Assembly (NCBI GenBank): GCA_945872365.1
Contig: CAMBZJ010000004.1
Span: 68,265-132,264, forward strand
Direction: 5' to 3'
DNA from: Klebsiella pneumoniae
GTDB taxonomy: Bacteria; Desulfobacterota; Binatia; UBA12015
Length of the DNA: 64,000 bases
A program made the position numbers and the translations under genes. Positions 42,517 to 64,000 of this stretch are shown here, piece after piece (position 1 is the first letter of the stretch; each line of letters opens with the position of its first letter). Under the pieces are notes generated by a model that searched no databases, was not told the DNA's origin, and worked only from the letters and a program-made list of their open reading frames with translations.

Positions 42517-42517
42517 G

Positions 42518-45159: not shown

Positions 45160-45196
45160 GCAGGACCGTCCGCATCACGAAGGAGGAATATTCGAC

Positions 45197-46929: not shown

Positions 46930-46966
46930 CCATGGGCCTCGGGTACGGTTCGAGGCGCTGTCTACC

Positions 46967-48055
46967 GTGAGAATCGCGCAGGTCGAGTTGGTTCCGTACG
47001 CGATTGCGCTGCGCGAGCCGATCGTCACGACGTTCGGTGCGATCACCCGGCGACGTGGCGCGATCATTCGCCTCGTCGTCGACGGGCCTGCGGGCGGAAG
47101 CGGGGAGGAAGGCCTCGGCGACTTCTCTCCCCACCCGGCCGCCTCGGATCAATCGATACGGCTTGCGTGGCGGGCCGCAAGCCGCGCGGCGCTCGATCTC
47201 CGCGGCGCGGACGTGTCGCGCATCGACGAAGTGCTGCGCGCTGCGCGACGCCTACCACCGTCGGCGGCGATGGCCCTCGACCTCGCACTGGTCGACTTGA
47301 AGGCCCGCATCGAGGGCCGCCGGCTGTGCGACACGCTGGGTGGCGCACGTCGCGACTCCGTCGCCACGAGCCACCTCCTGGGTGCCGACCCGGAGAGCGA
47401 CGCCCGGCGCGCTCTCGATTCCGGCTATACGGCGATGAAGCTCAAGGCGGACGGGCAGGTCGATACGACCGTGCGTCGTGTGCGGGAGGTTCTCCGGGTG
47501 GCGCCCGGGGTCGCGTTGCGCGTGGACGTCAACGGCGCGTGGTCAGTGAGGCAAGCGTTGCGAGCGGCGTCTCTCCTTTCGGGAGAGGTGGAGTGGCTGG
47601 AACAGCCGGTGGCCCCTGAAGACGTCGCGGGACTCGCTTGCGTCCGTCGTGCGGGGCACCTGAAGGTCGCAGCCGACGAGTCCGTGACCGACGTCGGCTC
47701 GGTCGAGGATCTCGAGCGGCATGGCGCGGCCGATGTCGTGGTAATCAAGCTCGTCCAGGTAGGCGGGTGGTCACGCGCGATCGAGGTCGCCGCGGCCGCT
47801 CGCCGGGCCGGGATGGGCGTCACCGTCACGACGGCGATCGACTCGGGGCTGGCTGCCGCGGCAGCGCTGCACCTCGCGCTCGCGCTGCCGGAGCCCATGA
47901 TCGCGTGCGGCGTGGCCACCGGAAACTGCCTGACCGGTGACGTCGTCATCGACCCGGTGGCGGACGGACCCCGGATGGCCCCGCCGCCGGGCCCTGGTCT
48001 CGGCGTGCGTCTCGACCGTGCCGCTCTCGCGAGATTCCGGACGGAGCAGCCATGA
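46967..48055 (+). CDS. menC: o-succinylbenzoate synthase (enolase superfamily)
   Basis: GTG start; MKLKADG...VDVNGAW...KLVQVGG enolase-type motifs; context between menA and menE. Confidence 0.8.
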   Translation: MRIAQVELVPYAIALREPIVTTFGAITRRRGAIIRLVVDGPAGGSGEEGLGDFSPHPAASDQSIRLAWRAASRAALDLRGADVSRIDEVLRAARRLPPSAAMALDLALVDLKARIEGRRLCDTLGGARRDSVATSHLLGADPESDARRALDSGYTAMKLKADGQVDTTVRRVREVLRVAPGVALRVDVNGAWSVRQALRAASLLSGEVEWLEQPVAPEDVAGLACVRRAGHLKVAADESVTDVGSVEDLERHGAADVVVIKLVQVGGWSRAIEVAAAARRAGMGVTVTTAIDSGLAAAAALHLALALPEPMIACGVATGNCLTGDVVIDPVADGPRMAPPPGPGLGVRLDRAALARFRTEQP

Positions 48056-49632
48056 TCGCAGTCGACTGGCTCCGGAACGCCGCCCTGGCTCGGCCCGATG
48101 CCGTGGCCCTGGAGATGCCCGGGCGCCCACCGATGAGCTTCGCCCAACTCGAGGCGCGGGTCGTGCGGCTCGCCGGGGGGCTCGGTTCGGCTGGGTTTTC
48201 CGCGGGCGATCGTGTGGTTGCGGTTCTTCCGAACGGCGCTGCGATGGTCGAGTTACTGCATGCGGTCCCACGCCTCGGAGGGGTGCTCGTTCCGATCGAT
48301 CCCCGCTCGACCGCCGTGGAGATCGAGCGGGCCAGGTCCTTGGTCGGCGGGAAGTGGCTGCTCCTCGGACCCGGCGTCCCCGGAGCCGTCGAACGGTCGC
48401 CCTGGGAGGGCGAGGTGCGGCTGGTTCATGCACTCGAGGACGAGATCCTGGTCGATCCGGCGCCGTCGTGCGATTCCCTTGGCGCACCTCCACCTGCGGC
48501 GCTCGATCTCGATCGTCCGCACTCCGTCGTCTTCACCTCTGGAACCAGCGGGCGTCCGAGGGCGATCGTCCTGACGGCTCGGAATCTTCTCGCCAGCGCT
48601 CTTGCGAGCGCGGAGCGCCTGGGGATCCGCAGCGACGATCGATGGCTGTGCACCCTGCCGCTGCACCACGTCGGAGGACTCTCCGTGCTCGTGCGCAGCG
48701 TGATCCTGGGGTTCACGACCGTTCTCCATGGCCGTTTCGAGCCGAACGCGGTCGCCGAGGCGCTGATCGACGAAGGCGTGAACCTCGTCTCCCTCGTCCC
48801 GACGACGCTGCGGCGGACGATCGAGGCACTCGGGACTCGGGCGGCAGGGACCCGTCTTCGCGCGATCCTGCTCGGTGGTGCGGCGGCGTCGCCCGAACTG
48901 CTCGACCGGGCACGAGCCCTCGGGCTGCCGATTGCCCCTACCTACGGGATGACGGAGGCGGCCTCGCAGGTTGCAACGGCCGCGCCCGGTGACCCGTGCA
49001 TGGCAGAGGGCAAGGTGGGACGGCCCCTGCGGGGAGTCGTGATCCGGATCGTGCGAGGCGATGACGGGGTGGCATCACCCGGCGAGCCGGGCGAGATCCT
49101 GCTCGCAGGCCCGACGATCTCAGGCGGCGAGATGAACGCCGACGGCTCGATTCGCCGGACCCTCGTCGATGGCTGGTTGTGGACGGGCGACCTGGGCGTA
49201 CTCGACGGGAACGGGTGCTTGCGCATCCTCGGTCGTCGCGACGACATGATCGTGACCGGCGGCGAGAACGTCGCCCCCGACGAGGTGGAGGCCGCACTTC
49301 TCGCGCACCCATGGGTCGCAGAAGCCGGGGTGGCGGGGGAGCCCGATCCGGAGTGGGGTGAGGTGGTGGCTGCGTGGATCGTGCCGGGCCCGCGGATCCC
49401 GACCCTCGAGGACCTGCGCGCGCATTGCCGTGTGACGCTCGCGCCGCACAAGCTTCCGCGCCGTCTACACATCCTCGCATCGCTTCCACGAACATCGCTC
49501 GGCAAGCTCAGGCGCTCCGAGCTTCGAGGTACCTCGCTCGGCCCGGGACCCGGAACGACCCGAGCGGTCGCAGGCGTTGCGCATGAGAACGGTGCGGCTC
49601 CGCCATCCCTTGGCGTGAAGGTCCGCTCATGA
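48052..49632 (+). CDS. menE: o-succinylbenzoate--CoA ligase
   Basis: AMP-binding FTSGTSGRPRAIV...GMTEA...WLWTGDLG...GRRDDMIVTGGENV. Confidence 0.85.
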   Translation: MIAVDWLRNAALARPDAVALEMPGRPPMSFAQLEARVVRLAGGLGSAGFSAGDRVVAVLPNGAAMVELLHAVPRLGGVLVPIDPRSTAVEIERARSLVGGKWLLLGPGVPGAVERSPWEGEVRLVHALEDEILVDPAPSCDSLGAPPPAALDLDRPHSVVFTSGTSGRPRAIVLTARNLLASALASAERLGIRSDDRWLCTLPLHHVGGLSVLVRSVILGFTTVLHGRFEPNAVAEALIDEGVNLVSLVPTTLRRTIEALGTRAAGTRLRAILLGGAAASPELLDRARALGLPIAPTYGMTEAASQVATAAPGDPCMAEGKVGRPLRGVVIRIVRGDDGVASPGEPGEILLAGPTISGGEMNADGSIRRTLVDGWLWTGDLGVLDGNGCLRILGRRDDMIVTGGENVAPDEVEAALLAHPWVAEAGVAGEPDPEWGEVVAAWIVPGPRIPTLEDLRAHCRVTLAPHKLPRRLHILASLPRTSLGKLRRSELRGTSLGPGPGTTRAVAGVAHENGAAPPSLGVKVRS

Positions 49633-50236: not shown

Positions 50237-52597
50237 TCAGCCCGGCTGGTTGCGCGACTCGATGAACCTCCGGCAGGGGTTGCCGCGCAGCACGCCGCAC
50301 TCGGGCCGGTCGGCCGGCACCTCGAGGCTTCCCTGCGGCAGGACGGGCATCACGATCGACGAGGCATGGGCACCGCCCCGGCCGATGCTGTAGCGGTCGC
50401 CTGCGCTGCCCGGGTTCTCGAAGAACCAGAGCGGCAGGTCGCGACCGGGCGTGTTCAACTGCACACGCAGGCGAGAACCGGCGCGCAGCGCATGGGCCAC
50501 GCTGAAGATCGGCACGCGGACGAGCGTGAATTCGCCGCGCGGCAGTGACTCGTAGTCGCCGTCCGCAAACCGCATCCGCACGAGGAACTCGTCGGAGTGC
50601 TCCTCGTCGACCTTGCGGTAGCCGGCGAGCTGGATGCCATTCTGGAGGCGGATCTCGTCGCCGTCGGGCGTCACCTCGGACAGCACGATCTCGAGCGGGG
50701 CGTCACCCGCGTCAGTCGCGATCCAGACCTCAGCGTAGCCGGGCCCTGCGAGCACCTGCGTCGAAGCGAGCGGAGCGGTCAGGTACGAGAGCCCCTTGCC
50801 GTCGGCCGCGCGGGTCCAGTCGAAGTTGAGCGTCGTCGCCGGCCTGATGAAGTCGTAGGCGCCGTTCTGGGCATAGCCGATCGGACCCGCCTCCGCGTCG
50901 AACTCGAAAGTGTCCGCGGCGTCCCCCGCGGGCTGGGATTCCGAGAGTCCCTCGGCGCCGTCGAAATAGAGCTTCCAGGCCTGTGCATCGCGCGGGGGCC
51001 ACTGGTCGTAGGTGGCGGAGTAGCGGTGGATCGGTGCGCCGGGGACGCCGGCGCCTGCACCCGACTCGAACAGAACGGTGACCGGCGCGTCGGATTCGAA
51101 GCGGGCGAGCGCGGCCCCGTACTGGCTGTCGGCCAGGTCGGCAAAGCGATCGGGCTCGAGAGGGAGCGGCGCACCGTAGTTGCCGACCATCTCGCCCGGG
51201 ATCGCGAGGCGGACCGCGGGGTTCACGTGCGGCACGGTCTTGTCGACGTAGAGGGACAGGAACTCGAACCAGTGACTCAGGTGATAAGCCTGGTAGCCGT
51301 CGGGATGGTGGCCGTTGAAGACGTAGAAGTGCTTGGAGGGCGAACGGTCGAAGTAGTTGAGCATCCCGGCGAAGCGCGGCCCGGTCTGTTCGTCCTGCCA
51401 GGCGCTCGTGAGGAAGACCGGGGCCTGAATTTCGCGCACCAGCTTCGAGAGGTCGCGGCTGTCGGCATCGGCCGGGCGACGCTGGAGCGAACTCACGAAC
51501 TTCTCGAATGGGATGCTCTGGGTGCGGATCGCCTGGTTCGCCTCGCAAGTCGTGTCACCGGCCCTGATCCGCTTCCCGGTCCATCCTTGGCCGCTCGGGG
51601 CCGACTCGCGGTCGCGCTGGGCGAGCCACTGCTTGGTGAAACCCGAGTTGTAGATGCCGCCCGGCCAGGACATCTGCCAGGAGTCCTCGATCACCGAGAG
51701 CGAGGTGATGCCGGCCAGATGGGGCGGATTGGTGGCAGCCACGTAGAGTTGCGAGTTGCCGGCATAGGAAAGTCCGACCATGCCGACGACGCCGTTCTTC
51801 ACCCAGGACTGCCGGGCGGCGATCTCGATCGCGTCGTAGCCGTCGGCCTGCTGGGCCGCGTTGAAGAAGTCGAAGGTGCCGCCCGAGCAGCCGGTCCCTC
51901 GGACGTTCACGCCGACGGTGGCGAAACCGAAGGCACCGGCGATCATGGAGCCCGGCTGGGGCTTCTCGGGATTCGAGGGGTCGTAGCCCGAGTACTCAAC
52001 GACGGTCGGATAGGGCGGGGGGCCGTAGAGCCGCGGGTCGGGGAAGCGGACCATGGCCGAGAGCGTGACGCCGTCGCGCATGGTGAGGTAGTTCACGCCC
52101 TCCTCGAAGGTGTAGCCGTCGATCGGCTTGCCGCCGATGACCTGCATGGGAACCCCCTGGAGAGACTGACCGGTGTAAAGCGATTCGTCCGGATGGTCGT
52201 CGCGACCGTGCACGCTGAAGGCGCCGGAAGCCTCGACGGGGTTCTTCTCCTCGTCGCTGATCACGTAGCCGGTACCGACCTTGAGGGCCTCCCCTCCGTT
52301 GGCGGCGGGGAGTTCGCCGCTCCCCGGGTCGATGACCGCGTGCTGTGATGGAATGTAGGCGAATACCGCCTGGCCAAGCTTGTCGGCGATCAGCGTGAGT
52401 TTCCGGTTGCCGGTGCCGTCGACGAGGGTGAGCTTCTCGCCCGGGTCGGCGCCGGTCACCGTCGCCAGTTGGACTCCGGGGGTCACCGTGAAGCGCGCCG
52501 GGGCGGTTTGCGGTCCGGCGGACCCGCTGTCGCCGCAGGCGGCAAGGCCGAGACCGGAAGCGAGGAGAACGAAGAGGGTTGTGGAAGATCGGGTCAC
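50237..52597 (-). CDS. CocE/NonD-family (S15 X-Pro dipeptidyl-peptidase-like) hydrolase, lipoprotein
   Basis: Lipoprotein signal MTRSSTTLFVLLASGLGLAAC; nucleophile elbow GLSYAG; ~780 aa with C-terminal beta-sandwich region. Confidence 0.8.
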   Translation of the reverse strand: MTRSSTTLFVLLASGLGLAACGDSGSAGPQTAPARFTVTPGVQLATVTGADPGEKLTLVDGTGNRKLTLIADKLGQAVFAYIPSQHAVIDPGSGELPAANGGEALKVGTGYVISDEEKNPVEASGAFSVHGRDDHPDESLYTGQSLQGVPMQVIGGKPIDGYTFEEGVNYLTMRDGVTLSAMVRFPDPRLYGPPPYPTVVEYSGYDPSNPEKPQPGSMIAGAFGFATVGVNVRGTGCSGGTFDFFNAAQQADGYDAIEIAARQSWVKNGVVGMVGLSYAGNSQLYVAATNPPHLAGITSLSVIEDSWQMSWPGGIYNSGFTKQWLAQRDRESAPSGQGWTGKRIRAGDTTCEANQAIRTQSIPFEKFVSSLQRRPADADSRDLSKLVREIQAPVFLTSAWQDEQTGPRFAGMLNYFDRSPSKHFYVFNGHHPDGYQAYHLSHWFEFLSLYVDKTVPHVNPAVRLAIPGEMVGNYGAPLPLEPDRFADLADSQYGAALARFESDAPVTVLFESGAGAGVPGAPIHRYSATYDQWPPRDAQAWKLYFDGAEGLSESQPAGDAADTFEFDAEAGPIGYAQNGAYDFIRPATTLNFDWTRAADGKGLSYLTAPLASTQVLAGPGYAEVWIATDAGDAPLEIVLSEVTPDGDEIRLQNGIQLAGYRKVDEEHSDEFLVRMRFADGDYESLPRGEFTLVRVPIFSVAHALRAGSRLRVQLNTPGRDLPLWFFENPGSAGDRYSIGRGGAHASSIVMPVLPQGSLEVPADRPECGVLRGNPCRRFIESRNQPG

Positions 52598-52767: not shown

Positions 52768-53736
52768 TTGTTCGTAGGGCACCTGTCGCCCACTTCAGCC
52801 CACTCCTCCAACCGCCGCGACTTCATGCGGCTTGCGGCAGGAGCTGGCGCCTCGCTCGGCCTCGCGTCGCTGTTCGCGACGCCCGCGCGAGCCGGGGCCG
52901 CGACGGCGCCCCCGGCCGCAAGCGGCAAACCCTTCGACCTCGTGGGCCTGAAGATGCCCTTCCGTCAGGACGACCCGGCCTGGGGCCGCGACGTCATGTG
53001 GGACCGCAAGCTGGTCCTGAAGGCTGCCGCCCTCAACAAGACTCCGAAGGCCACGGCGAACGCGCTGCTGCGCGAGTTCGAGGACGGCAACACGATCGCC
53101 AACGAGGGCTGCCTCCTCACCTGCATGGCGATGGTGCTGCGCATGCTGGCGCCGGCTGGTCATGGGACCTGGACGCCCCGCACGCTCAACCGCGCAGCGC
53201 AGGCCGCCTATTACTACACGCGCTGCGGGCTCTCGATGACGACCCTCAACGCCGACCTGGTTTCGGAGGTTTCCGAGGGCACCGTGCAACTCGGTCCCAA
53301 GGAGGAGTACCTGCCGGCGGTGTCGCCCTGGCCGTCGGTCTTCTGCGATACGGCGCCTCTCGTGCGTGCCTACCGCAGCCTCGCCCCGGAGAAGCGCGCC
53401 GACTTTCTCGTCGTACTGAAGATCGGTACGTACGACGACACGGTGGCGTCGCACTACGTGCTCCTCGATCCCAACTCGACCGACGGGCCCGACGTCCGCG
53501 ATGCCGAAATCCTCGACCCCGCCATGCCCGCGGGGCAGACCGGGAAGTGGCGGCTCTCGGACTCCTCGGCCTGGATCACCGGAGATCCCGAGATCGCAGC
53601 CGGTTGGGCGGTCGACGGCATCGTACCGATGCAGATCGCCGGTGCCTGGGTCTACACGCGGTGGGAGGCGGCGGCCGGTCGAACCATGCTCGCACCGCTC
53701 GTGGGAGCCTGGGCCGGCGAACTCGCTCGCGGTTGA
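52768..53736 (+). CDS. Tat-exported standalone peptidase-C39-like cysteine peptidase
   Basis: TTG start gives MFVGHLSPTSAHSSNRRDFMRLAAGAGASLGLASLFATPARA, a twin-arginine signal. EGCLLTCMAMVLRML aligns with the C39 dCGpacLamvlr catalytic-Cys motif, and SHYVLLD aligns with the catalytic-His (HfvVl) motif about 110 aa downstream. Confidence 0.65.
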   Translation: MFVGHLSPTSAHSSNRRDFMRLAAGAGASLGLASLFATPARAGAATAPPAASGKPFDLVGLKMPFRQDDPAWGRDVMWDRKLVLKAAALNKTPKATANALLREFEDGNTIANEGCLLTCMAMVLRMLAPAGHGTWTPRTLNRAAQAAYYYTRCGLSMTTLNADLVSEVSEGTVQLGPKEEYLPAVSPWPSVFCDTAPLVRAYRSLAPEKRADFLVVLKIGTYDDTVASHYVLLDPNSTDGPDVRDAEILDPAMPAGQTGKWRLSDSSAWITGDPEIAAGWAVDGIVPMQIAGAWVYTRWEAAAGRTMLAPLVGAWAGELARG

Positions 53737-53751
53737 GACCGGGTCGGCGGA

Positions 53752-55653
53752 TCAGCGGTTGGCGGCCGCCGGCAAGTAGACGCGGCTGTAGCCCAGGAGG
53801 GTACCGGTCGCGAAGGCCAGGTCGATCTGTGCCACCTGGTAGTCGACGATCGCCTTCACCTCGCGGATCTGCGCTTCGCCGAGGCGCGTCAGGCCTTCGA
53901 GAACCTCGGTCATGGTGCGCAGGCCCTCGCGGAACTGGGTGAGTTCGGCGTCGTAGTTGATGCCGGCGACCGCGACGTTCTGGCGGGCGGCCAGAATGCG
54001 TTGCCAGTTCTGCTGCAACTGGTCGAGGGCATCGAAGATCTCCCGGCGCACGGTAAGTTCGCGCAGCACACGACTCGCGAGGCGTTGCTGTCGCTCCTGG
54101 ATGGCGCGCTCGAGCTTCGAGCGGCGCGCCTGATTGGTGAGCGGGATCTCCAGTCGGCCACCGACGAACCACTCGTCGTAGGGCCCGCCGAAGGTGTCTC
54201 CCCAGGACGAGCCGTAGCCGTCGCCCGATTGCCCGAGCGGCGCATAGCTGTACTCGACGGTGAAGAGGGGCAGGGTCTGGTTCTCGAGGTAGTCGATCTT
54301 CACGAGGTCCGAGGCGAGCTTCAACTCCAGTTCGAGGAGTTCCAGGCGGCCCTCGATGGCCTGCCGGACGAGCGCATCTCGGTCGAAGTCGAAGCGCACC
54401 AGTTGCGGTCGGGTCTCGGGCACCAGCAGGACCGGTGAGCCGAGCTCGAGGTCGGGGTCGTTCAGAAAGAGCTTCAACTGGCGCTCGCGTAGCTTGAGGG
54501 CGGTCTCGGCCTGCACGAGCGACTCGAGCCGCTCGGCAACCCCGAGTTCGGCGCGGTTCACCTCGACCGCCGGGGAGAAGCCCTCGGCGACACGCTGGCG
54601 GACCAGTTTCAGATTGCCCTGCGCGTTCTCGTATTGCTGGCGCCGCACGTCGAGTTCGGCCCAGGCGCCGTAGACCGCCCAGTAGGCCTTGTCGATCGCC
54701 GCGAGGATGCGGATCGCCTGGAGTCGGGTCTTCACGTCGGTCGCGCGCTGGTCGTACTCGGCGATCCGGATGCTGGCGACGTTCGTCCCGAGTCCGGCGT
54801 CGCGAAGCAGCGGCTGGCTCGCCGAGAAGCGCAGCGCCGACAACCACTGGTCCGAGGGAATGTCGGTGAGGGCGTTCTTCTGGCTGAACGGTGCGCTCAC
54901 GGCCAGTCGCCCGCCGGTGCGCAGCGGAATGGAGATCCCGGCGTCGACCTCGAGGGAGTTCACCTTCTCGGGTAGTTCGATCAGGCGCGCCGTCTGCCCT
55001 TCGAGCGGCGAGCCTGGGTCTGTCTTGAACGTGACGAGGTCGCCGGAGAGCTTCGGCGTGTACTTCTTCCCGTATTTCGCGCGGGCGAAGATCAGGTCGT
55101 CGAACTTCGCGCGCTCCTCGTTCACCAGCAGCGAGGCGATCTTGGGATCGAGTTGGGCGATCTGCAGTTCGAGGTTGTTGCGCAGGGCCTCCTCGCGGAC
55201 GTCGGCGAGCGTGACCGGGATCGTCCCGCGGCTCCGAGCGGCCTCGAATCGACGGGGCGGGGCGGGCGTCGCCGCAGGCGCCGGCGCAGCGGTGCCGGGT
55301 GCCATCGATGCATCCGGCGCCGTCGCGGAAGCGGTCGCAGCCGCCCCAGCGCGCCTCGCCTCGTCGAGCCGCGGCACCGCGAGCCGACGCGGCCCGCTTG
55401 ACGGGTCCGACCAGTCCTGGCGTGCGACGGCCTCGTCGAGGGTCTCGCGATCGCGGGCGATGGAGTCGAGGTCGATGCTCTCCCCGGCGGCGAGCCGGTT
55501 GCGCACCCGGCCTTCCATCTCCGGCGAGATGCGGCCGTGGTAACTCGTGCAGGACGCCGCGAGACACGCGAGGGCGGCGAGCATGGCGGCCTGCATGCCA
55601 TAGGTGGCGGTCTTGTGGTGCTGCGGCCGTTGCATGGCGGGTCGTCCGATCAC
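53752..55653 (-). CDS. TolC-family outer-membrane efflux/secretion protein with long Ala/Pro-rich N-terminal region
   Basis: Lipobox-like LAALACLAASC; two TolC repeat halves (LTLADVREEALRNNLELQIAQ... and ...AIQERQQRLASRV...); last gene of the minus-strand operon. Confidence 0.85.
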   Translation of the reverse strand: MIGRPAMQRPQHHKTATYGMQAAMLAALACLAASCTSYHGRISPEMEGRVRNRLAAGESIDLDSIARDRETLDEAVARQDWSDPSSGPRRLAVPRLDEARRAGAAATASATAPDASMAPGTAAPAPAATPAPPRRFEAARSRGTIPVTLADVREEALRNNLELQIAQLDPKIASLLVNEERAKFDDLIFARAKYGKKYTPKLSGDLVTFKTDPGSPLEGQTARLIELPEKVNSLEVDAGISIPLRTGGRLAVSAPFSQKNALTDIPSDQWLSALRFSASQPLLRDAGLGTNVASIRIAEYDQRATDVKTRLQAIRILAAIDKAYWAVYGAWAELDVRRQQYENAQGNLKLVRQRVAEGFSPAVEVNRAELGVAERLESLVQAETALKLRERQLKLFLNDPDLELGSPVLLVPETRPQLVRFDFDRDALVRQAIEGRLELLELELKLASDLVKIDYLENQTLPLFTVEYSYAPLGQSGDGYGSSWGDTFGGPYDEWFVGGRLEIPLTNQARRSKLERAIQERQQRLASRVLRELTVRREIFDALDQLQQNWQRILAARQNVAVAGINYDAELTQFREGLRTMTEVLEGLTRLGEAQIREVKAIVDYQVAQIDLAFATGTLLGYSRVYLPAAANR

Positions 55654-56966
55654 TTCACGCGCTTGCGGGCGACGTCCGGCTTGGGCTTCTCCTCGGGAAT
55701 GCGTGGCGGAAATCCGTTGAGCTGGCGCCAGGTCTCGTAACCGACGGTCACGCGATCGAGGAGAATCCAGCCGCGTGCCTGGCTCCCCTGGCGGAGAAAG
55801 CGATCCGAAGGCCAGGAGCGCTCGCTCTCGTCAGGGACGACCATGACCCGAAACTTCCCCTTGCCGTCGTCGGTCGGATCGACGAAGGCCACCTCGCCGG
55901 CGAAGCTACCGACCGCGACCTCGGGCCAGCCGCCGAACTGCACGGCGGGCCAACCCTCGAACTGGAGACGTACCTTGCGTCCCGGCGTGATGAGTGGCGC
56001 GTCGTTGCCGCGCACGAGGAGCGCGACGCCACGCCGGCTGGTCTCCGGTACGAGCACGACGAGCGGGTCGCCGGGCTTGAGCACCTCGGCGTCGGGATTG
56101 TTCAGGAGTCGCAGGACCACGCCGTCGCGCGGCGCGGTGATCGTCTGGGCGCGCTGGCGCGCGATGTCGACCTCGAGCTTGAGCATCGACTGCCGCCCGT
56201 CGGCGACTTCCCCGGCCACCTTGCTCGCGGAGGCCGATGCCGACTCGACCCTCGCCTGGGCGTCGGCGCGGGTCCGGTCGACCTCGACATCCGCGGCGCG
56301 CAACTCGGCCTTCGCCGCCTCGAGCGTGGCCCGCGAGGAGTTCAGGCTGCGCCGGGCGACTTCGGCATCGCGCTCGGCGACCTCGACGTCGCGTCTCGAA
56401 ACGACCCCGGAGCGGAGCAGGCGTGCAAGGCGCGCCGACTGCGTGGTCGCGGCCGTCAGCGAGGCCTCGGCGCCGCTCACCGCCTCCCGGGCGCCGCGGG
56501 CGCGTTCGCCCACGCCATCGAGACGTTGCCGGGCCGCGCCGACCTGGAGGTCGCGGCCGGACTCGATCTGCTGGAGCTGCAGCTGGTAGCTGCGCAGTTC
56601 CTGGTCCTTCGCGTCGATCTTCGACTGGAGTTCACGCTTCTGCCCCTCGAGTCGCACGAGGGCCTCGGGGTCGATGTCGGAGACGTCGGCGAGCAGGTCG
56701 CCGGCCTTCACGATCGAGCCTTCCTGGACATGCCAGCGCAAGACGCGTCCACCGACCGGTGTGTCGACGGTCTGCTGGCGTTCGTTCGGGAGGAACGCCG
56801 TCACCTCGCCGGTTGCCTGGATGTTCTGCACCCACGGCAGGAGGAGCATGGCGATCGGCGTGAGGACCATCGCCCAGGAGCAGGCGGTCGCCATCCGACT
56901 CACGATGAGCGGCGTCTGTGCCACGCTGAGGGCGGTCGCAAAGCCGCGATCGGTGGATGGTCTCAT
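55650..56966 (-). CDS. HlyD-family membrane fusion protein (T1SS)
   Basis: N-terminal TM segment, long coiled coil and C-terminal beta-barrel (HlyD_3-like) region. ATGA overlaps with the flanking genes. Confidence 0.85.
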   Translation of the reverse strand: MRPSTDRGFATALSVAQTPLIVSRMATACSWAMVLTPIAMLLLPWVQNIQATGEVTAFLPNERQQTVDTPVGGRVLRWHVQEGSIVKAGDLLADVSDIDPEALVRLEGQKRELQSKIDAKDQELRSYQLQLQQIESGRDLQVGAARQRLDGVGERARGAREAVSGAEASLTAATTQSARLARLLRSGVVSRRDVEVAERDAEVARRSLNSSRATLEAAKAELRAADVEVDRTRADAQARVESASASASKVAGEVADGRQSMLKLEVDIARQRAQTITAPRDGVVLRLLNNPDAEVLKPGDPLVVLVPETSRRGVALLVRGNDAPLITPGRKVRLQFEGWPAVQFGGWPEVAVGSFAGEVAFVDPTDDGKGKFRVMVVPDESERSWPSDRFLRQGSQARGWILLDRVTVGYETWRQLNGFPPRIPEEKPKPDVARKRVK

Positions 56967-59119
56967 GCGGCCTGCCCTCCCGCATCACGGTCGCGACCGG
57001 ATTCGAGTCGCACGGTGCGGTCGCAAACGCTTGCGATCGCGGTGGAGCGGGTCAGCAGGACGAGGGTGAAGCGCCGCGCGGGATCGAGGAGCGCGGCGAC
57101 CGCGTCGCCGCGGTCGTCTTCGTCGAGGTCGTCGAGCAGGCCGTCCACGATCACGAGTTCGGGGTCCCCTGCGAGGGCGCGCGCGAGCATGAGACGCCTC
57201 ACCTGCCCGCCGGAGAGGGGAGCACCACCGGGGACCAGCCTGGTCTGCAGGCCGCCGGCTAGGAGCCGCAGGCCCTCGAGCAGGCCGGTCGCCGAAAGGG
57301 CCGAGACGACTTGCTCATGCGTCACCTCGCCTCGGCCGAGACGGACGTTCTCGTAGATCGTGTCCTTGATCACCTCGGGCTCCGAGGCGAGACCAATGCG
57401 CCTGCGGACCTCCACGAGGCGCAGTTCGCGGAGATCGAAGCGATTGAGTCGGATCGTACCCCGATCCGGGCGCCGCAGACCGACGAGGAGAGTGGCCAAG
57501 GTGCCCTTGCCGCTGCCCTCGGCGCCGAGGACAGCCACCCGTTCGCCGGGTTCGGCGCGGAGGTCGAGTCCCCGGAAGACCGGTGGCGAGTGCTCGTGCG
57601 AGAAGTGCAGATCGCTCGCCTCGAGTTCCATCGGCGCATGATTCCACCGACCGGCGACGTCGGATCCCTGCTGTGGTTCCAGCGGCAGGTCGATCAGGTG
57701 TCCGAGCTTGTCCGACGCGGCTAGCAGGTCGTAGTAGCTCTCGAGTTGCTTCCCGAACTTGGCGAACGAACTCAGCAGGGATGTGACGATCAGCTCCGCC
57801 GCGACGAGTTGTCCCAGGGAGAGTTGGGCATCCATCACCAGGAGTCCGCCCAAACCGAGAAGTGCTGTGCCGGCGACCGCCGACAGCACGGCGAGCGCAA
57901 CGTTCTGGCGCAGCACCACGCGGTAGTGTCGCCCACGGGCATGCAGATAACCGTGCGAAAGCAGGTCGGTGCGTTCCGCTGCGTGGTCCGGGCCCCCGTA
58001 GAGCTTGAAGGAGAGGGAGTTGCGGGCGACGTTCTCGAGCCAGGCCGCGACGGCATACTTCGCCCGCGACTCGGCGATCGCCGTCTCGGTCGCGCCGCGT
58101 CCGAGCAGGAAGACGATTCCGAGCAGGCAAGCCACGAGGATCGAGTCGAAGCCAAGCAGCCACGGATGGTAGAAAGCCAGCACGACCAGTCCGATGATCG
58201 CCTGCAACAGCGTTGCGACCCCATCGAGGAGGAGCGTCGCCGCCGCCTTCTGCACGGTCATGACCTCGAAGAAGCGATTCACCAGCTCGGCCCCGTGCGC
58301 CCGGTCATGCACCGCCTGGGTGACGCGCGGCAGGCGCCAAGCGAGGTCGGCGGCGATACGGGCGAAAATCCGTCGCTGGATGATCTCGACCAGGTAGGCC
58401 TGCGAGATGCGCAGCACGCCCGAGAAGGCGAGGAAGACGAAGAGCATGAAGACGAGGACGAGCAGCGGTTGACGCAGCCCGCCCATAGCCACGGAGTTCA
58501 CCAGGGCCTGGACCGCCACGGGCGTCGCGAGTCCGAGAAGGCCGACCCCGATCGCGAACTCGATGACCCGGACCAGGTCGCGGCGCTCCGGTCGCAGGAG
58601 TTCCCAGAGTCGGGCCTGAGGGGGCGTGTCGTGGCCGTGATCGGCGCGGGCGGCATGCAGGGGTGCCGCCGGCGCGACGACGACCCAGTCCCGCGGGCGA
58701 TCGACATCGGTCCCGAGGCGAGCGGCGAGGCGATCGAGGCTCTCCCGCGAATCGGCCGTGGAGTGGGCATCCACGCGGGTACATTTCAGCGCGCCACCGA
58801 CCGCTCCCCAAACGAGCGTGCAGGCGCCCGACGCTCCGGGGCCGGAGTTCTCGAAAGTGATCGCGGGAGCTTCTTCGCCGGAGAGGTCCGCTACTTCGCG
58901 CAGCGACAGCCGCACCGGCCTCGCGGCGAGGCCGCGATAGGTGGCGCGCGCCATGAATCTCTCGATGCCGTCGAGCGATTCCCCGACGCCCTCGCCACCG
59001 AAGTCGCTCTCGCCGGGTGTCCCGACGTGGAGACGCTCGACCACCAGGTGCAGGACCCGGTCGAGAGCGGGCAGGGGGCCGCGCGGGGGCTCGGGGATGT
59101 CGTCTTGGAACGCGGACAT
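56963..59119 (-). CDS. T1SS ABC transporter (permease/ATPase) with N-terminal C39-like domain lacking the catalytic Cys
   Basis: Walker A GAEGSGKGT; signature LSGGQVRRL; Walker B LVIVDGLLDDLD; 6-TM domain. The ~150-aa N-terminal domain matches the C39 scaffold (...RATYRGLAARPVRLSLREV...PAI...), but the Cys position is non-Cys, as in the HlyB CLD. Confidence 0.85.
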   Translation of the reverse strand: MSAFQDDIPEPPRGPLPALDRVLHLVVERLHVGTPGESDFGGEGVGESLDGIERFMARATYRGLAARPVRLSLREVADLSGEEAPAITFENSGPGASGACTLVWGAVGGALKCTRVDAHSTADSRESLDRLAARLGTDVDRPRDWVVVAPAAPLHAARADHGHDTPPQARLWELLRPERRDLVRVIEFAIGVGLLGLATPVAVQALVNSVAMGGLRQPLLVLVFMLFVFLAFSGVLRISQAYLVEIIQRRIFARIAADLAWRLPRVTQAVHDRAHGAELVNRFFEVMTVQKAAATLLLDGVATLLQAIIGLVVLAFYHPWLLGFDSILVACLLGIVFLLGRGATETAIAESRAKYAVAAWLENVARNSLSFKLYGGPDHAAERTDLLSHGYLHARGRHYRVVLRQNVALAVLSAVAGTALLGLGGLLVMDAQLSLGQLVAAELIVTSLLSSFAKFGKQLESYYDLLAASDKLGHLIDLPLEPQQGSDVAGRWNHAPMELEASDLHFSHEHSPPVFRGLDLRAEPGERVAVLGAEGSGKGTLATLLVGLRRPDRGTIRLNRFDLRELRLVEVRRRIGLASEPEVIKDTIYENVRLGRGEVTHEQVVSALSATGLLEGLRLLAGGLQTRLVPGGAPLSGGQVRRLMLARALAGDPELVIVDGLLDDLDEDDRGDAVAALLDPARRFTLVLLTRSTAIASVCDRTVRLESGRDRDAGGQAA

Positions 59120-59153
59120 GACTCGGGTGTCCTTGGAGCGGGCGGGGAGAAGA

Positions 59154-59534
59154 TCAGCGCCGGGTCGGCCGCCGCAAGATCAGCTTCAACAAGTCGTCGA
59201 CGGCGCAATGACTCTCCACCGGGTGGCGCAGCGGTAGGGCCGTCTTGATCTCGTAGTGGTTGCGCCGGCCGTCGCGGTGGCGCTCGATGTAACCGGCCTC
59301 CTCCAGTTCCGAGACGATCCGCTGCACGGCGCGCTCTGTCACACCCACCGAGCCAGAGACGTCCCGCATCCGCGCGGCCGGGTCCTGGCTGAGGCACACG
59401 AGGACGTGCGCGTGGTTGGTGAGAAAGGTCCACGGCGCGCGCGGCGTCCTCGCAGCGGGTTGCGGGCCGGACGCAGTCTTCTTTCGCGTGGCGCGCCGCT
59501 GCGGGGCGTGTGCGGGGCGTGCGGTCTCGTCCAT
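59154..59534 (-). CDS. ArsR/MarR-type winged-helix transcriptional regulator
   Basis: FLTNHAHVLVCLSQDPAARMRDVSGSVGVTERAVQRIVSELEEAGYIERHRDGRRNHYEI wHTH; first gene of the T1SS operon. Confidence 0.65.
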   Translation of the reverse strand: MDETARPAHAPQRRATRKKTASGPQPAARTPRAPWTFLTNHAHVLVCLSQDPAARMRDVSGSVGVTERAVQRIVSELEEAGYIERHRDGRRNHYEIKTALPLRHPVESHCAVDDLLKLILRRPTRR

Positions 59535-59757
59535 GCCTCTCTCCTAGCAGGTCAGTTCGCGATTAGCAATACACGATATAAACGTCGCAATAACCTGCGG
59601 GCCCGACCGGCGAGGGCTGCGGGCGGGCGCCCGGGTCGGGCCCGACTCGGACCATCGAGGCGGTGCGGGACCCGGGGCTCGCTTGTTCCGAGGCCGGGTG
59701 CGGACTATTCACCTTCATCGCGCAACCGCGACGTCGCGTCGCCACTGGAGACCCCCG
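59535..59757. promoter_or_regulatory. Divergent promoter/operator region between the regulator-T1SS operon and H-NOX
   Basis: Locally AT-rich stretch GCGATTAGCAATACACGATATAAACGTCGCAATAACC with direct repeat GCAATA...N18...GCAATA, in an otherwise ~70% GC context. Confidence 0.45.
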
Positions 59758-60318
59758 ATGTACGGACTCATCAATACCGCCGTGAAGGATCTGATCGTGA
59801 CCCGCTTCGGCGCCGACAAGTGGGAACAGATCGTCGAGAAGGCGAAGACCGGCGAGGGCAACTTCGTCCTCATGCAGAAGTACCCCGACGACGTCACCTA
59901 CCGTCTCGTCGGAGCGGCCAGCGAAGTCCTTGGTGCGCCTGCCAACGACCTTCTCGAGGCATTCGGCGAGTACTGGACGCAGTACTCGGCGGAGGCGGGC
60001 TTCGGGCACCTCCTCGACTTCGCCGGCGACAATCTGGTCGACTTCCTGCGCAACCTCGACAGCATGCACACCCGGATCGGGATGACGTTCACCGAGCTCG
60101 AGCCTCCGTCATTCACCGTGTCCGACATTCAGGACGGCAGCCTCCGGCTGCACTATCGCTCGAAGCGCCCCGGCCTTGCCCCGGTAGCGATGGGAATGGT
60201 GAGGGGCCTCGGCAAGCGTTTCAATACTCCGATCGAGATCGAACTGGTCCGCTCCCGAGAGAGCGGGCACGATCACGACGAGTTCCTCGTGCGCCACGGA
60301 GCTGCCGCGAGCGCCTGA
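59758..60318 (+). CDS. H-NOX (heme nitric oxide/oxygen-binding) domain protein, standalone
   Basis: MYGLINTAVKDLIVTRFGADKWEQI N-terminus; proximal His in NLDSMHTRI; Y-x-S-x-R heme-propionate motif in HYRSKR; 186 aa with no fused output domain. Confidence 0.85.
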   Translation: MYGLINTAVKDLIVTRFGADKWEQIVEKAKTGEGNFVLMQKYPDDVTYRLVGAASEVLGAPANDLLEAFGEYWTQYSAEAGFGHLLDFAGDNLVDFLRNLDSMHTRIGMTFTELEPPSFTVSDIQDGSLRLHYRSKRPGLAPVAMGMVRGLGKRFNTPIEIELVRSRESGHDHDEFLVRHGAAASA

Positions 60319-60624
60319 GCCCGTGGCCGACCGGACCACGATGGGCCGCTGCGAAGCTGCCCGCTCAGCCGCGTCTGTCGCGCGCGAGGGCAGGAGATGA
60401 GGCGTCGATGGCGGGCGTGGCAGGAGGCCGTGCCACCTTGAGCCGTCCGCACCGCGCACGACCGCATCGAGGGGTGCATCCTCTTCCTCGGGGAGGTCCA
60501 CGTAGATCACGGTGCCCGTGAACCGGTTGAAGATGAAACCGTCGCCATAGACCCAGAGGCCGCCGTAGGCGAGGGCGCCGCCGACGAATCCGAGAGCGAG
60601 CAGAAACGCCGTCGTTCGCGTCAT
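60109..60624 (-). CDS. Hypothetical small membrane protein ORF (doubtful); 3' part antisense to H-NOX
   Basis: MTRTTAFLLALGFVGGALAYGGLWVYG TM-like N-terminus. The ORF extends 210 nt into the H-NOX coding region, so at least its 3' portion is probably non-coding read-through of a GC-rich frame. Confidence 0.25.
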   Translation of the reverse strand: MTRTTAFLLALGFVGGALAYGGLWVYGDGFIFNRFTGTVIYVDLPEEEDAPLDAVVRGADGSRWHGLLPRPPSTPHLLPSRATDAAERAASQRPIVVRSATGSGARGSSVAHEELVVIVPALSGADQFDLDRSIETLAEAPHHSHRYRGKAGALRAIVQPEAAVLNVGHGE

Positions 60625-60743
60625 GATGGTCTCCCGACCGGTGCTCTCTCCGGATGCATGCCTTGCCCGCCCTTCCGGCCGTCGATATACCAGCGCACCG
60701 GGCCGGGGGCATTCCCCGACGACCCGTGGGAGCGGGGGAGGCC

Positions 60744-61901
60744 ATGGGCGTGCGTCGGGAGGAATACGAGGCTCGCGAAAGCGACCTGCTCGCTCCCTGG
60801 GCGACGCGCAGTGCGGGTTCGCGCGGCCGCGAGTACCCCGAAGCCGAGCACCCGCTCCGCACCGCCTTCCAGCGAGACCGGGACCGGATCATCCATTCGA
60901 CGGCGTTTCGCCGCCTCGAATACAAGACCCAGGTCTTCGTGAACCACGAGGGCGACTACTACCGGACGCGCCTCACCCACACGATGGAGGGCGCCCAGAT
61001 CACCCGCACCATCGCTCGCGCGCTGCGCCTGAACGAGGATCTGGCGGAGGCGGTCGTGCTCGCCCACGATCTCGGGCACACGCCGTTCGGGCATGCCGGG
61101 GAGAAGGTTCTCGACGGGCTCATGGAGCCCCACGGCGGATTCGAGCACAATCTGCAGAGCCTGCGGATCGTCGAACTCCTCGAAGAGCGCTACCCCGATT
61201 TTCCCGGCCTGAACCTCACCTGGGAGCTGCGCGAGGGCATCGCGAAACACTCCGGTGACTACGACCGGCCGTCGATCCGCCGCTTCGATCCTGCGACCGC
61301 GCCCTGTCTCGAAGCGCAGATCGCGGACTTCGCCGACGAGATCGCCTACAACTGCCACGACATCGACGACGGGCTGCAATCGCTCATGCTGCGGCCCGAA
61401 GACATGGACCAGGTCGGCCTGTGGCGCGAGCATTTCGCATCCGCCAAGGCCGTGGCGCCCCACGCGCCGTTCTCGATCGTGCGTTACCAGACGGTGCGCC
61501 GCATCCTCGACGCGATGGTCTCGGAGCTCGTCCGCTTCACCGAGCAGGAACTCCGAGCCCGCGGAATCGAGACCCTTGCCGACGTGCAGGCGGTGAAGCC
61601 GCGCCTCGCCGGCTACGGCGACGAGATGCAGGCGCAGATTCTGGAACTCAAGCGCTTTCTGATGGACCATCTGTACACGCACGTCCGCGTGACGCGGATG
61701 GGCATGAAGGCACGCACGGTGATCAGCGGTCTCTTCCGCACCTATATGGACGAGCCGCGCCAGATGCCGCCTCACGTCCATGCCCACGTCGAGAGGGGTG
61801 AGCCGGTACCGCGCGTGATCGCCGACTACATCGCCGGCATGACCGACCGATTCGCTCTCGACGAGTACGCGAAGCTCTTCGACCCGCTCGAGAAGGTATG
61901 A
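60744..61901 (+). CDS. dgt: dGTPase-like HD-domain triphosphohydrolase
   Basis: FQRDRDRIIHSTAFRRLEYKTQVF...RTRLTHTMEGAQI...AHDLGHTPFGHAGE. ATG 60744 has a GGGGGAG RBS. Confidence 0.85.
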   Translation: MGVRREEYEARESDLLAPWATRSAGSRGREYPEAEHPLRTAFQRDRDRIIHSTAFRRLEYKTQVFVNHEGDYYRTRLTHTMEGAQITRTIARALRLNEDLAEAVVLAHDLGHTPFGHAGEKVLDGLMEPHGGFEHNLQSLRIVELLEERYPDFPGLNLTWELREGIAKHSGDYDRPSIRRFDPATAPCLEAQIADFADEIAYNCHDIDDGLQSLMLRPEDMDQVGLWREHFASAKAVAPHAPFSIVRYQTVRRILDAMVSELVRFTEQELRARGIETLADVQAVKPRLAGYGDEMQAQILELKRFLMDHLYTHVRVTRMGMKARTVISGLFRTYMDEPRQMPPHVHAHVERGEPVPRVIADYIAGMTDRFALDEYAKLFDPLEKV

Positions 61902-62530
61902 AGCGGCGCGCCTGCCTCGAGATCCACCGCGATGATCACAAGTACGACACCCTCGGACGGATCTTCCTCGGCGTCGTCGACGGCGAGGAGATTCTGGATC
62001 TCTTGCGGCGCTACCTCGGGCCTCAGGCCTCGTTGCACAGGGTCGAGCTCCGGGACGACGTGCTCGCCATCGAGGCCGACATTCGGGAGTTTCCCGAGGA
62101 GAGCGCAAACCTGGTCGAGATCGGGCGTTCGATGCTGCGCCGCGGGATCACTCGGTCCGCGATCGGGCAGATCGAGGAAGCGCTTCGCCTCGCGCCGCTC
62201 AATGCCGAGGCCCTCAAGACCATCGGTCGCTACCACTACCGGCGCCGGGAGAGGGAACTCGCCCGGCGCTACCTGATCCGCGCCCGCGAGGCGGCACCGG
62301 GGGACACCGAAGTGCTGCGGCTCCTGGCCGAGATCGCGATCCACGCCGACCGGCCGCTCGAGGCACGCGGCTACCTGGAGCGGGCGCTGCGGATTCACCC
62401 AGGCGACCGTCGTGCCCGCGCCGCGCTGGCGCGACTCCGTCCTGCGGGCGAGAGGTCCTTGGGCCCGGTGGAAGCTGAAGACCTGGAAGTCGACGACGAG
62501 TCCCCGGACGGCTCCGAACCGAACGACTGA
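61898..62530 (+). CDS. TPR-repeat protein
   Basis: TPR-like repeats (AIGQIEEALRLAPLNAEALKTIGRYHY...). ATGA overlap with dgt. Confidence 0.6.
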   Translation: MKRRACLEIHRDDHKYDTLGRIFLGVVDGEEILDLLRRYLGPQASLHRVELRDDVLAIEADIREFPEESANLVEIGRSMLRRGITRSAIGQIEEALRLAPLNAEALKTIGRYHYRRRERELARRYLIRAREAAPGDTEVLRLLAEIAIHADRPLEARGYLERALRIHPGDRRARAALARLRPAGERSLGPVEAEDLEVDDESPDGSEPND

Positions 62531-62819: not shown

Positions 62820-63536
62820 TTAGCTCTTCCACGTCTCCGCACCCAGTGGCAGCTCGTTCAACTCCGCCCTAACCTCGCGCCATGTTGGGTAGTGCTTGCT
62901 CAGCAGCGCGAGGAACTTCTCACTGTGTGTGGGTGAAATCAGGTGAAGCATCTCGTGAACGACGACGTACTCCAACACGTCCTTCGGCTTCTTCACCAGT
63001 TCGGTGTTCAGGCGGATGTTTCTTGCTCGGTGGTTGCAGCCGCCCCACTTGGTCTTCATGCGCTGGAGGAAGTAGCCGGTCACCTTGACGCCGAGCCTTG
63101 ATTCCCATTTGCGGATCAACTCTGACACGACCTCGTGCAGCAGGGACCGATGCCATTCCTGCATGACGGCATCGCGCTTTGTCCGCGTGCTGCCAGGGCG
63201 CATGGTCAGCGTGATGCGGCGGTGGCTGAGACGCACGGACGGCTTTTCATCCTTCTCGATGACGGACAGCAGATACCGCCGACCCCATAGGTAATGGCTC
63301 TCGCGTTCGACGAACTCACGCGGCGTCTCGCGCGCCTGCCCACGCAGCTTCGCCTGCTGGTCCCGTATCCAGCCGAGCTTCGAGGCCGCATAGGCGCGGG
63401 CCACTTCGAGGCGCGTTGCTTTCGGTGCGACCAGCGTGACTCGACCGCTCGGCGGGTGCACCGAGAGGTGGACGTGCTTGACGTCCTTGCGCGTCACGTC
63501 GATGGCGATGTCACCGAGCTGGATCGTCTCGGTCAT
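62820..63536 (-). CDS. M48-family/YgjP-like zinc metallopeptidase (DUF45)
   Basis: HEMLHL zinc motif; typical partner gene of type I R-M systems; its start overlaps the hsdR stop. Confidence 0.8.
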   Translation of the reverse strand: MTETIQLGDIAIDVTRKDVKHVHLSVHPPSGRVTLVAPKATRLEVARAYAASKLGWIRDQQAKLRGQARETPREFVERESHYLWGRRYLLSVIEKDEKPSVRLSHRRITLTMRPGSTRTKRDAVMQEWHRSLLHEVVSELIRKWESRLGVKVTGYFLQRMKTKWGGCNHRARNIRLNTELVKKPKDVLEYVVVHEMLHLISPTHSEKFLALLSKHYPTWREVRAELNELPLGAETWKS

Positions 63537-64000
63537 CAGTACCCCGGCTGGTTCTTGACCAGCTCGAAGAGCGCGAGGGTCGCTTCGCGGCTGCGGTCGA
63601 GAATCGGGAACAGAGCGTTGAGTACCTGTGCCTCCCTCGCCTGGTCACCCTTCCAGCCTGCCGGCGCCCGCTCGCGCATCACGCGGTCGATCTCGAGAGC
63701 CAACCCGAGGCGCTCATCCCCATACTCGGCGCGGGGCTCGGCGACCCCCGCTACCTCGGCGCCGCACATCGCCAGGATCCGCGGCAGGTTGTTGTAGATC
63801 ACGGTCGCCTCGCGCTTGCCTTGCAGCGCCGCGGGGATGGCCTCATCGGGTTGCTTGGTGGCCAGCCGCTTTACCAGCGCCGCGGCCTTCTTCAAAAACT
63901 CCTCATACGCGGCGGCATCCACCCGGCTCTGCTTGATGAGGTCGTCGAGCAGCTGCGACATCAGCTCGTAGAACCGGGGGTCGGTGAGCTGGTCGCGGAT
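63536..64000 (-). CDS. hsdR: Type I restriction enzyme R subunit, C-terminal part (gene continues beyond the window end)
   Basis: The frame stays open through the window edge (...IRDQLTDPRFYELMSQLLDDLIKQSRV...AAYEEFLKKAAALVKRL...). HsdR C-terminal (DUF3387-like) helical domain; lower local GC. Confidence 0.6.
   Translation of the reverse strand: MRDQLTDPRFYELMSQLLDDLIKQSRVDAAAYEEFLKKAAALVKRLATKQPDEAIPAALQGKREATVIYNNLPRILAMCGAEVAGVAEPRAEYGDERLGLALEIDRVMRERAPAGWKGDQAREAQVLNALFPILDRSREATLALFELVKNQPGY

Follow-up and report, generated by a model that had tools for sequence, protein, structure and literature searches.

We found that hnoX, a gene in the 64,000-nucleotide stretch of DNA that we analysed (the window), encodes a genuine, intact, and canonical member of the H-NOX family. 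The protein itself is ordinary, and what is unusual is the place of its gene. The NO receptor of animals has its bacterial relatives in the H-NOX proteins, and, to our knowledge, every characterised H-NOX has been understood through the effector gene that lies beside it. Here, a small and cleanly delimited clade retains the sensor under normal selection without the neighbour that 79 of 80 related species keep. This clade provides a natural experiment on the output of an unlinked H-NOX, which might be an effector encoded in trans or a new type of output. The protein belongs to a known family, and we regard its context as a useful lead, not as a discovery.

Fold and haem pocket of the H-NOX protein

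The original prediction described the product of hnoX as a textbook H-NOX protein of 186 amino acids with no other domain, and this is borne out by its family, its fold, and its motifs. The protein begins with MYGLINTAVKDLI, is translated from an ATG codon with a putative ribosome binding site (GGAGA) about 7 nt upstream, and contains no cysteines. Alignment to the HNOB family of Pfam (PF07700), which had been proposed as a check, gave a score of 173.8 bits (E = 3.5e-51; the cut-off is 25.5 bits) and covered positions 1-162 of the 163 positions in the profile. Sequence searches also matched the protein to the H-NOX of Nostoc sp. PCC 7120 (Alr2278; E about 1e-59 to 2e-59) and to the H-NOX domain of sGC beta1 (E about 1e-35). 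We built an AlphaFold model with 14 homologues (pLDDT 89.4), and this model is most similar to Nostoc H-NOX (PDB 2O09; TM 0.94, rmsd 1.2 Å), followed by chains of sGC beta1 (TM 0.88-0.91); we place the protein in the Nostoc/sGC-like clade of H-NOX proteins. The protein is thus predicted to have the H-NOX fold, with an N-terminal helical subdomain and an alpha/beta subdomain. Only the start needed correction: position 59535, which was originally given, is the first base of the intergenic region after the start codon of the neighbouring wHTH gene, and the coding sequence of hnoX begins 223 bp later (Table 1).

Table 1. Features at and around hnoX, in coordinates of the window
Feature	Position	Strand	Evidence or remark
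TolC/OEP-family outer-membrane channel, called as 627 aa	53752-55635	-	Pfam OEP
HlyD-family membrane-fusion protein, 438 aa	55650-56966	-	Pfam HlyD_3
ABC exporter, fused permease and ATPase, 718 aa	56963-59119	-	Pfam ABC_membrane, ABC_tran
wHTH regulator, MarR/ArsR-like, 126 aa, first gene of the exporter operon	59154-59534	-	Pfam HTH_24, MarR
Divergent intergenic region between the wHTH gene and hnoX, 223 bp	59535-59757	.	68% GC overall
Conserved 20-nt element, TCGTGTATTGCTAATCGCGA (also given as TCGTGNATTGCNANTCGCGA)	59557-59576	-	~22 nt upstream of the wHTH start
hnoX, H-NOX haem sensor without a fused domain, 186 aa	59758-60318	+	Pfam, homology, model
Small ORF, convergent with hnoX	60366-60624	-	Conserved across partner-less loci
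dGTP triphosphohydrolase, HD and HD_assoc	60744-61901	+	NF002326, 511 bits (cut-off 390)
TPR-repeat protein, 210 aa, overlaps the dGTPase stop codon	61898-62530	+	Pfam

The haem-binding residues are intact. His104 aligns with His105 of Nostoc H-NOX and with His102 of Tt H-NOX (the haem ligand from helix F), and the protein retains the Tyr133-x-Ser135-x-Arg137 motif for the haem propionates as well as the conserved prolines (Pro116 and Pro117) that are associated with haem distortion. Across 95 sequences of the clade, His104, Pro116/Pro117, Tyr133, and Arg137 are invariant (95/95), and residue 135 is serine in 87, as in the window, and threonine in 8. Loss of the proximal histidine or of the YxSxR motif upon careful alignment would have told against the original prediction, and neither was seen.

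The distal side of the pocket bears on the identity of the ligand. We aligned the window protein with the sequence of Tt H-NOX, whose numbering was checked by hand only at Trp9; His102, Tyr131/Ser133/Arg135, and Tyr140 land in the expected columns. In this alignment, the column of Tyr140 contains Val143 of the window protein (and Met, Phe, Val, or Leu elsewhere in the clade), and the columns of Trp9 and Asn74 are gaps, so the signature of the O2-binding subclass (a distal tyrosine with the Trp9/Asn74 hydrogen-bond network) was not found. The reading of the distal residue that had been suggested as a test of selectivity therefore points to the NO type: given the non-polar pocket and the established relations between structure and function in H-NOX proteins, we predict that this protein is a sensor of NO (and CO) that excludes O2, like Nostoc H-NOX and sGC.

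Signalling partners of hnoX

H-NOX proteins contact histidine kinases or DGC/PDEs that are "usually adjacent" or "in the same operon" (PMC8738867, PMC4436077). We examined gene calls and Pfam labels within 10 kb on either side of hnoX, and we made our own gene calls, with Pfam, over the remainder of the 64-kb window. In this span, which reaches about 60 kb upstream of hnoX and 10 kb downstream of it, we found no genes for kinases, GGDEF/EAL proteins, HD-GYP proteins, or MCPs. The claim that no histidine kinase, DGC/PDE, or MCP gene lies nearby thus holds well beyond the 2.5 kb for which it was made. Nor does the window contain a gene with an HNOBA domain and an output domain that abuts hnoX. 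When we compared the kinases of related loci to the window, either as tblastn queries or as HMMs, there was no match; in particular, tblastn with these kinases found no remnant in the 425-bp spacer downstream of hnoX (60319-60743), with only weak hits elsewhere (E > 1).

The HD-family gene that starts 425 bp past hnoX, at 60744, was already described as dGTPase-like, which is correct. It passes the dGTPase equivalog model NF002326, which rules out an HD-GYP enzyme that acts on c-di-GMP, and by its sequence it is a housekeeping dGTPase. The other ~50 kb of the window is devoted to housekeeping and metabolism (greA, nusA, infB, rbfA, truB, pnp, and dut, as well as pur genes, nadB, dnaX, recR, secF, and men-like genes). 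The 10 kb past the window, as seen on contigs from the same population, encodes a type I R-M island or metabolic genes. Many independent assemblies from the same population, and other species too, show the arrangement around hnoX, so it is not an artefact of assembly.

Nearly all other hnoX genes have a partner. A scan of GTDB with one genome per species returned 80 hnoX loci, and in 79 of them a signalling gene abuts hnoX, so that an hnoX without an adjacent partner (1 of 80) is much rarer in this clade than the original prediction could have anticipated. In 77 of the 80 loci, the abutting ORF contains an HNOBA domain (74 downstream of hnoX and 3 upstream, with one locus, L027, assigned by hand). 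We take HNOBA, the usual partner in this clade, to be the split counterpart of the H-NOXA domain of sGC (Pfam PF07701), following Iyer et al. 2003. Two flavobacterial loci instead have a 1,260-aa PAS-GAF kinase and a REC protein directly downstream. According to Pfam, which we ran on ten partner ORFs that were missed by an HMM for the kinase core, the outputs of the partner proteins include HK, HK-REC, GGDEF, GGDEF-EAL, SpoIIE, and GAF-PAS-STAS. The sole exception among the 80 loci is L017 (from the MAG REEB422), whose H-NOX is the closest to the window protein (75% identity).

Metagenomic relatives gave the same picture. We chose five close homologues (68-74% identity) on contigs that were long enough to judge, and all five are accompanied by an HNOBA-HisKA-HATPase_c gene, which encodes a kinase of 396-414 aa and either overlaps hnoX or begins 0-47 nt downstream. 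Another 11 pairs of H-NOX and kinase were inferred from identical lengths of the longest contig for the H-NOX and for the kinase.

The same difference separates the window from the systems that it most resembles. The alphaproteobacterial modules of H-NOX and HNOBA-HisKA-HATPase_c (P0004, P0010, P0013-P0015, and L018-L020) have H-NOX proteins that are 66-74% identical to the window protein, with the same length, the same motifs, and a sister position in the tree, but the HNOBA kinase (396-414 aa, 0-47 nt downstream) is absent from the locus in the window's lineage. The closest known systems include the H-NOX of Nostoc punctiforme along with Alr2278. Alr2278 is 51% identical to the window protein over its full length and is likewise a stand-alone protein of ~185 aa with the proximal histidine, the YxSxR motif, the conserved proline, and a non-polar distal position (Met144, corresponding to Val143). 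In all of the cyanobacterial loci that we retrieved (Nostoc, Calothrix, Anabaena, Nodularia, and others), however, a large HNOBA ORF lies directly downstream (an HMM detects the kinase core in most of these), and the window has none. The H-NOX domain of sGC beta1 (31-37% identity) shares the fold and the haem ligation, but it is fused to H-NOXA/PAS, coiled-coil, and cyclase domains, whereas the window protein has no fusion and no adjacent HNOBA gene. More distant (~20-25% identity) are the stand-alone, NO-selective H-NOX proteins that act on a separate effector, namely the HnoX/HnoK systems (Shewanella, HqsK of Vibrio, and CC2992/CC2993 of Caulobacter) and Hnox1-Lpg1057 of Legionella (PMC8738867, PMC10746521, PMC8846402); in these, unlike in the window, the effector gene is adjacent.

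The partner-less lineage and its conserved gene order

In a neighbour-joining tree, the six partner-less sequences (the window, L015/L097, L098, and L017/L099) form a single clade, which represents at least four species (the organism of the window and at least three others) and is sister to the kinase-linked alphaproteobacterial clade (66-74% identity). The simplest reading of this tree is that the linkage was lost once. A kinase or c-di-GMP partner in related genomes had been named as potential evidence against the original prediction. The sister clade does always have an HNOBA histidine kinase directly downstream of hnoX, and the partner-less lineage has none at the locus. Because of the constant arrangement in the sister clade, we conclude that the H-NOX of the window descends from a canonical kinase-coupled sensor.

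The loss of linkage was not accompanied by relaxed selection. For hnoX, dN/dS is 0.29 between the window and L017, 0.27 between the window and L015, and 0.13 between L017 and L015, which is similar to the values for three kinase-linked pairs at similar divergence (0.18-0.30). For comparison, the neighbouring genes of the window and L017 have dN/dS of 0.10 (dGTPase), 0.25 (ABC exporter), and 0.28 (wHTH regulator). Within the population, contigs L001-L006 differ from the hnoX of the window at 1-3 nucleotides, all of which are at third codon positions, and the protein is identical. Only six substitutions are fixed in the partner-less clade relative to its sister clade, and most of them are conservative (K7T, I65L, V107I, L109M, P112T, and Y134R). 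Thus, hnoX is maintained under purifying selection, without relaxation.

The gene order is also maintained. The genes for the OEP, HlyD, ABC, and wHTH proteins are followed by the divergent hnoX (behind a GST gene in some species), then by a small ORF that is convergent with hnoX, and then, divergent from the small ORF, by the genes for the dGTPase and the TPR protein. This collinear block extends over 7-9 kb across the lineage, with 68-88% protein identity, and L017 is collinear with the window from the OEP gene to the TPR gene (55173-62447; 71-83% nucleotide identity). Similarly, the closest homologues of the wHTH regulator (65-69% identity) lead to the same block in L097, L098, and L099-L101. 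In L097 and L098, the GST gene (369 aa) separates the wHTH gene from hnoX, and on the short contig L015 it is found upstream of hnoX. The window and L017 lack it at this position, and no gene like the GST of L015 was found elsewhere in the window.

The original prediction placed the wHTH regulator at the head of a type I secretion operon. Genes for an ABC exporter, an HlyD-type adaptor, and a TolC-type channel do follow the gene for the 126-aa regulator and are encoded together according to Pfam, but the proteins fall far short of the curated cut-offs of the best T1SS models in NCBIfam: the scores are 187.8 bits for the ABC protein (cut-off 693.1), 84.3 for HlyD (208.7), and 73.9 for OEP (225.2). 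"T1SS-like tripartite ABC exporter" therefore seems the safer label. We saw no RTX-like protein or protein with a C-terminal secretion signal beside the exporter genes. Two secreted-looking proteins are encoded adjacent to the exporter, one with an apparent Tat signal and the other with an apparent lipobox (both read by eye). The N-terminal domain of the ABC protein (~170 aa) has no match in Pfam. We considered whether this domain might be a hidden HNOBA/PAS receiver, but hhalign gave a probability of 0.1%, and a single-sequence model had a pLDDT of 39, which is too low for the fold to be read. The wHTH regulator consists of a core of ~90 aa with no ligand-binding domain; it matches the ArsR/SmtB model below the cut-off, and its family has over 7,800 members from many phyla.

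The small ORF is present in every partner-less locus and in none of the partnered loci. Its conservation is limited to the first ~55 codons (60460-60624), with dN/dS of 0.20 for this head and 0.54 for the tail. The product has a hydrophobic N-terminal stretch, which by eye is likely to be one transmembrane helix, and the motif YGDGFIFNRFTGTVIYVDLPEEE. It has no match in Pfam or NCBIfam, and among 1.84 billion representative proteins it has only about 7 clusters.

The control region between the wHTH gene and hnoX had been described as AT-rich, which is not the case: its overall GC content is the same as that of the window (68%), and only the ~80 bp beside the wHTH start are richer in AT (52-60% GC). 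The region cannot be aligned between species except for the 20-nt element and a weak CTTGTC motif. The 20-nt element has invariant positions across four species and is found once per locus in L017 and in L097-L101. It occurs only once in the window and in L098, so there were no further copies there to mark a regulon. The element probably serves the wHTH-exporter operon as its promoter or operator. The CTTGTC motif lies ~55 nt upstream of hnoX, even where hnoX is behind the GST gene, and may mark hnoX's own promoter. Around hnoX, we found no sigma-70-like promoter, no matches to Rfam, and just one terminator-like match, which is no more than expected by chance.

Possible outputs of the unlinked sensor

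Because hnoX is under normal purifying selection and the haem pocket is intact, we think that ordinary H-NOX signalling, in which NO is sensed on behalf of an unlinked effector, is the most likely role, and we give it about an even chance of being correct. In the ancestor, H-NOX would have been the sensor half of a two-gene module and would have regulated the protein encoded directly downstream, with its HNOBA domain and its output domain, most often a histidine kinase. The separation of hnoX from this partner would date to the common ancestor of the small lineage and would have left hnoX alone between the wHTH-exporter operon and the small ORF with the dGTPase gene. The ferrous haem of the present-day protein would bind NO, which would strain or break the bond between His104 and the iron, and the ensuing change in shape would modulate, via protein-protein contact, an effector that is encoded elsewhere in the genome. 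A profile search with the kinases of relatives listed about 105 HNOBA kinases, each on at most 9 contigs, as compared to 111 contigs for the H-NOX cluster of the window. If the same abundant population carried an HNOBA kinase, then we would expect a similar number of contigs, and none comes near. This comparison, which is indirect and is blind to other types of effectors, speaks against the presence of an HNOBA kinase at another place in this genome.

Alternatively, hnoX could be functionally joined to its neighbour, the divergent wHTH-ABC/HlyD/OEP operon: the regulator might control both divergent units as a stress regulon, or NO-bound H-NOX might bind the regulator so that export is controlled by NO. 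The two units are neighbours in every partner-less locus of sufficient length (the window, L017/L099, L097, and L098), they share a spacer with one strongly conserved element, and the regulator is small and lacks a ligand-binding domain of its own. There is also an indirect lead from a kinase-coupled H-NOX: deletion of hnox in Caulobacter alters the levels of the type-I-secreted S-layer protein, of its outer-membrane channel RsaFa, and of several GSTs (PMC10746521). However, a single collinear lineage accounts for all of these loci, which means that shared ancestry suffices to explain the adjacency, and the GST gene intervenes in L097, L098, and L015. The 20-nt element is close to the start of the wHTH gene and is unchanged whichever gene lies opposite, and on the side of hnoX only the weak CTTGTC motif is conserved. 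The large family of the regulator contrasts with the handful of clusters of partner-less H-NOX; the one 59%-identical member that we checked has neither hnoX nor the exporter nearby, and the regulator has no homologue in any of the 79 partnered loci. The N-terminal domain of the ABC exporter is not HNOBA-like, either. Overall, we consider a joint function of the two units to be unlikely. The original prediction called for a survey of linkage to wHTH-exporter operons, and such linkage is indeed conserved in the partner-less lineage, but only there. Its inference that H-NOX controls secretion or pairs directly with the regulator is not supported, as the case for coupling to secretion consists of gene order within one lineage. 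It is decidedly improbable that H-NOX exchanged its HNOBA kinase for a transcriptional output, by acting on the wHTH regulator or by being co-regulated by it through the 20-nt element as an operator. If this were true, then a tripartite ABC exporter (and a GST in some species) would be under the control of NO, and it would be the first pairing of an H-NOX with a transcription factor; we found no such pairing in the literature.

The locus has no partner, and no HNOBA kinase was seen at a comparable abundance, which would also be expected if H-NOX has no effector at all and was kept, after its partner was lost, for buffering or scavenging NO or for carrying haem. In some relatives, the gene lies behind a GST, which is a detoxification-type neighbour, and since the protein has no cysteines, any activity must rest on the haem. 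No bacterial H-NOX is known to us to act as an NO buffer. Furthermore, surface and C-terminal motifs that are typical of the partnered clade (such as GHDHDEF) are still conserved, and the rate of substitution is the same as in the signalling relatives, which fits a retained interface for protein-protein interactions better than a simple sink for the ligand. We view the effector-less explanation as quite unlikely and prefer signalling through an unlinked effector. Finally, a missing partner and functionally unrelated neighbours might indicate that the gene is a relic in decay or that the arrangement arose from errors in assembly or annotation. This is highly improbable and is largely refuted by the data: at least four species retain an intact reading frame, dN/dS is far below 1, the differences within the population are all synonymous, and the arrangement is found in independent MAGs as well as on many independent assemblies.

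Conserved elements flanking hnoX

We found that a 20-nt element, TCGTGNATTGCNANTCGCGA, lies about 22 nt 5' of the start of wHTH, the winged-helix regulator gene that heads the exporter operon. It is kept in all species of the partner-less lineage (the clade whose hnoX genes have no adjoining signalling partner gene), with a single copy at each locus. Outside of this element, the spacer 5' of wHTH has no alignable sequence among the lineage's species. Its probable role is that of operator or promoter for the wHTH-exporter operon.

On the hnoX side, a weakly conserved CTTGTC-type motif is found about 55 nt 5' of the gene in four relatives (L017, L015, L097, and L098). In three of these (L097, L098, and L015), a GST-like gene precedes hnoX, at a distance of 62-72 nt. 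This gene is not present at the hnoX loci of the window or of L017, and no homologue of it was found anywhere in the window. The motif is present behind either neighbour, the divergent wHTH gene or the same-strand GST gene, and it may be a promoter element of hnoX itself.

Positions of the features discussed (window coordinates unless a relative's locus or a population contig is named)
Feature	Position	Strand	Remarks
20-nt element TCGTGNATTGCNANTCGCGA	59557-59576	minus	conserved across the lineage
20-nt element, other copies	L017 4355-4374; L097 4826-4845; L098 7539-7558; L099 1209-1228
CTTGTC motif	59700-59715		weakly conserved; CTATTC in the window
GST-like gene, 369 aa	L097 3561-4670; L098 6356-7465; L015 1-810	as hnoX	GST_N_3, GST_N_2, GST_C
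Small ORF	60366-60624	minus	conserved portion 60460-60624; convergent with hnoX
ABC exporter residues 1-175	58595-59119	minus
303-aa protein	52825-53736	plus	Tat-like signal RRDFMRLAAGAG...; adjoins exporter operon
786-aa CocE/NonD (S15) hydrolase	50237-52597	minus	lipoprotein-like N-terminus; adjoins exporter operon
Type I restriction-modification island	62820-64000, running past window end; L001 13063-20561		3' of TPR gene
Menaquinone-biosynthesis-like cluster	41738-49632		from Pfam domains
tRNA-Arg(CCT)	32188-32261

A small ORF convergent with hnoX

Every partner-less hnoX locus also has a small ORF, whose longer form runs into the 3' end of hnoX. Purifying selection acts on its first ~55 codons (dN/dS of 0.20) and not on its tail. 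The product matches no family, and only about 7 clusters of it are found among 1.84 billion representative proteins. Its hydrophobic N-terminal stretch, which is followed by YGDGFIFNRFTGTVIYVDLPEEE, is likely to be one transmembrane helix, as judged by eye.

The exporter and adjoining proteins

The N-terminal ~170 amino acids of the ABC exporter are 42-48% identical within the lineage and match no Pfam family. We rejected an HNOBA-like identity for this region, as it has no resemblance to HNOBA; a single-sequence structure model of it was too low in quality for fold classification. The 303-aa protein, which matched no family, and the 786-aa hydrolase both have the look of secreted proteins, with their signals assigned by eye. 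Neither resembles a substrate of type I secretion.

Other features of the window

The cluster at 41738-49632 encodes proteins with Pfam domains akin to those of menaquinone biosynthesis. These are a MenD-like TPP enzyme, a MenB-like member of the enoyl-CoA hydratase family, a MenC-like MR_MLE protein, and a MenE-like AMP-binding ligase, where the Men labels are read from the domains. The type I restriction-modification island encodes a YgjP-like peptidase, HsdR, one uncharacterised gene, HsdS, and HsdM. It is strain-variable: the window has it 3' of the TPR gene, as do five of the six contigs shown from the organism's own population, and the other contig (L002) has methyltransferase, porin, and PhoD genes in its place.
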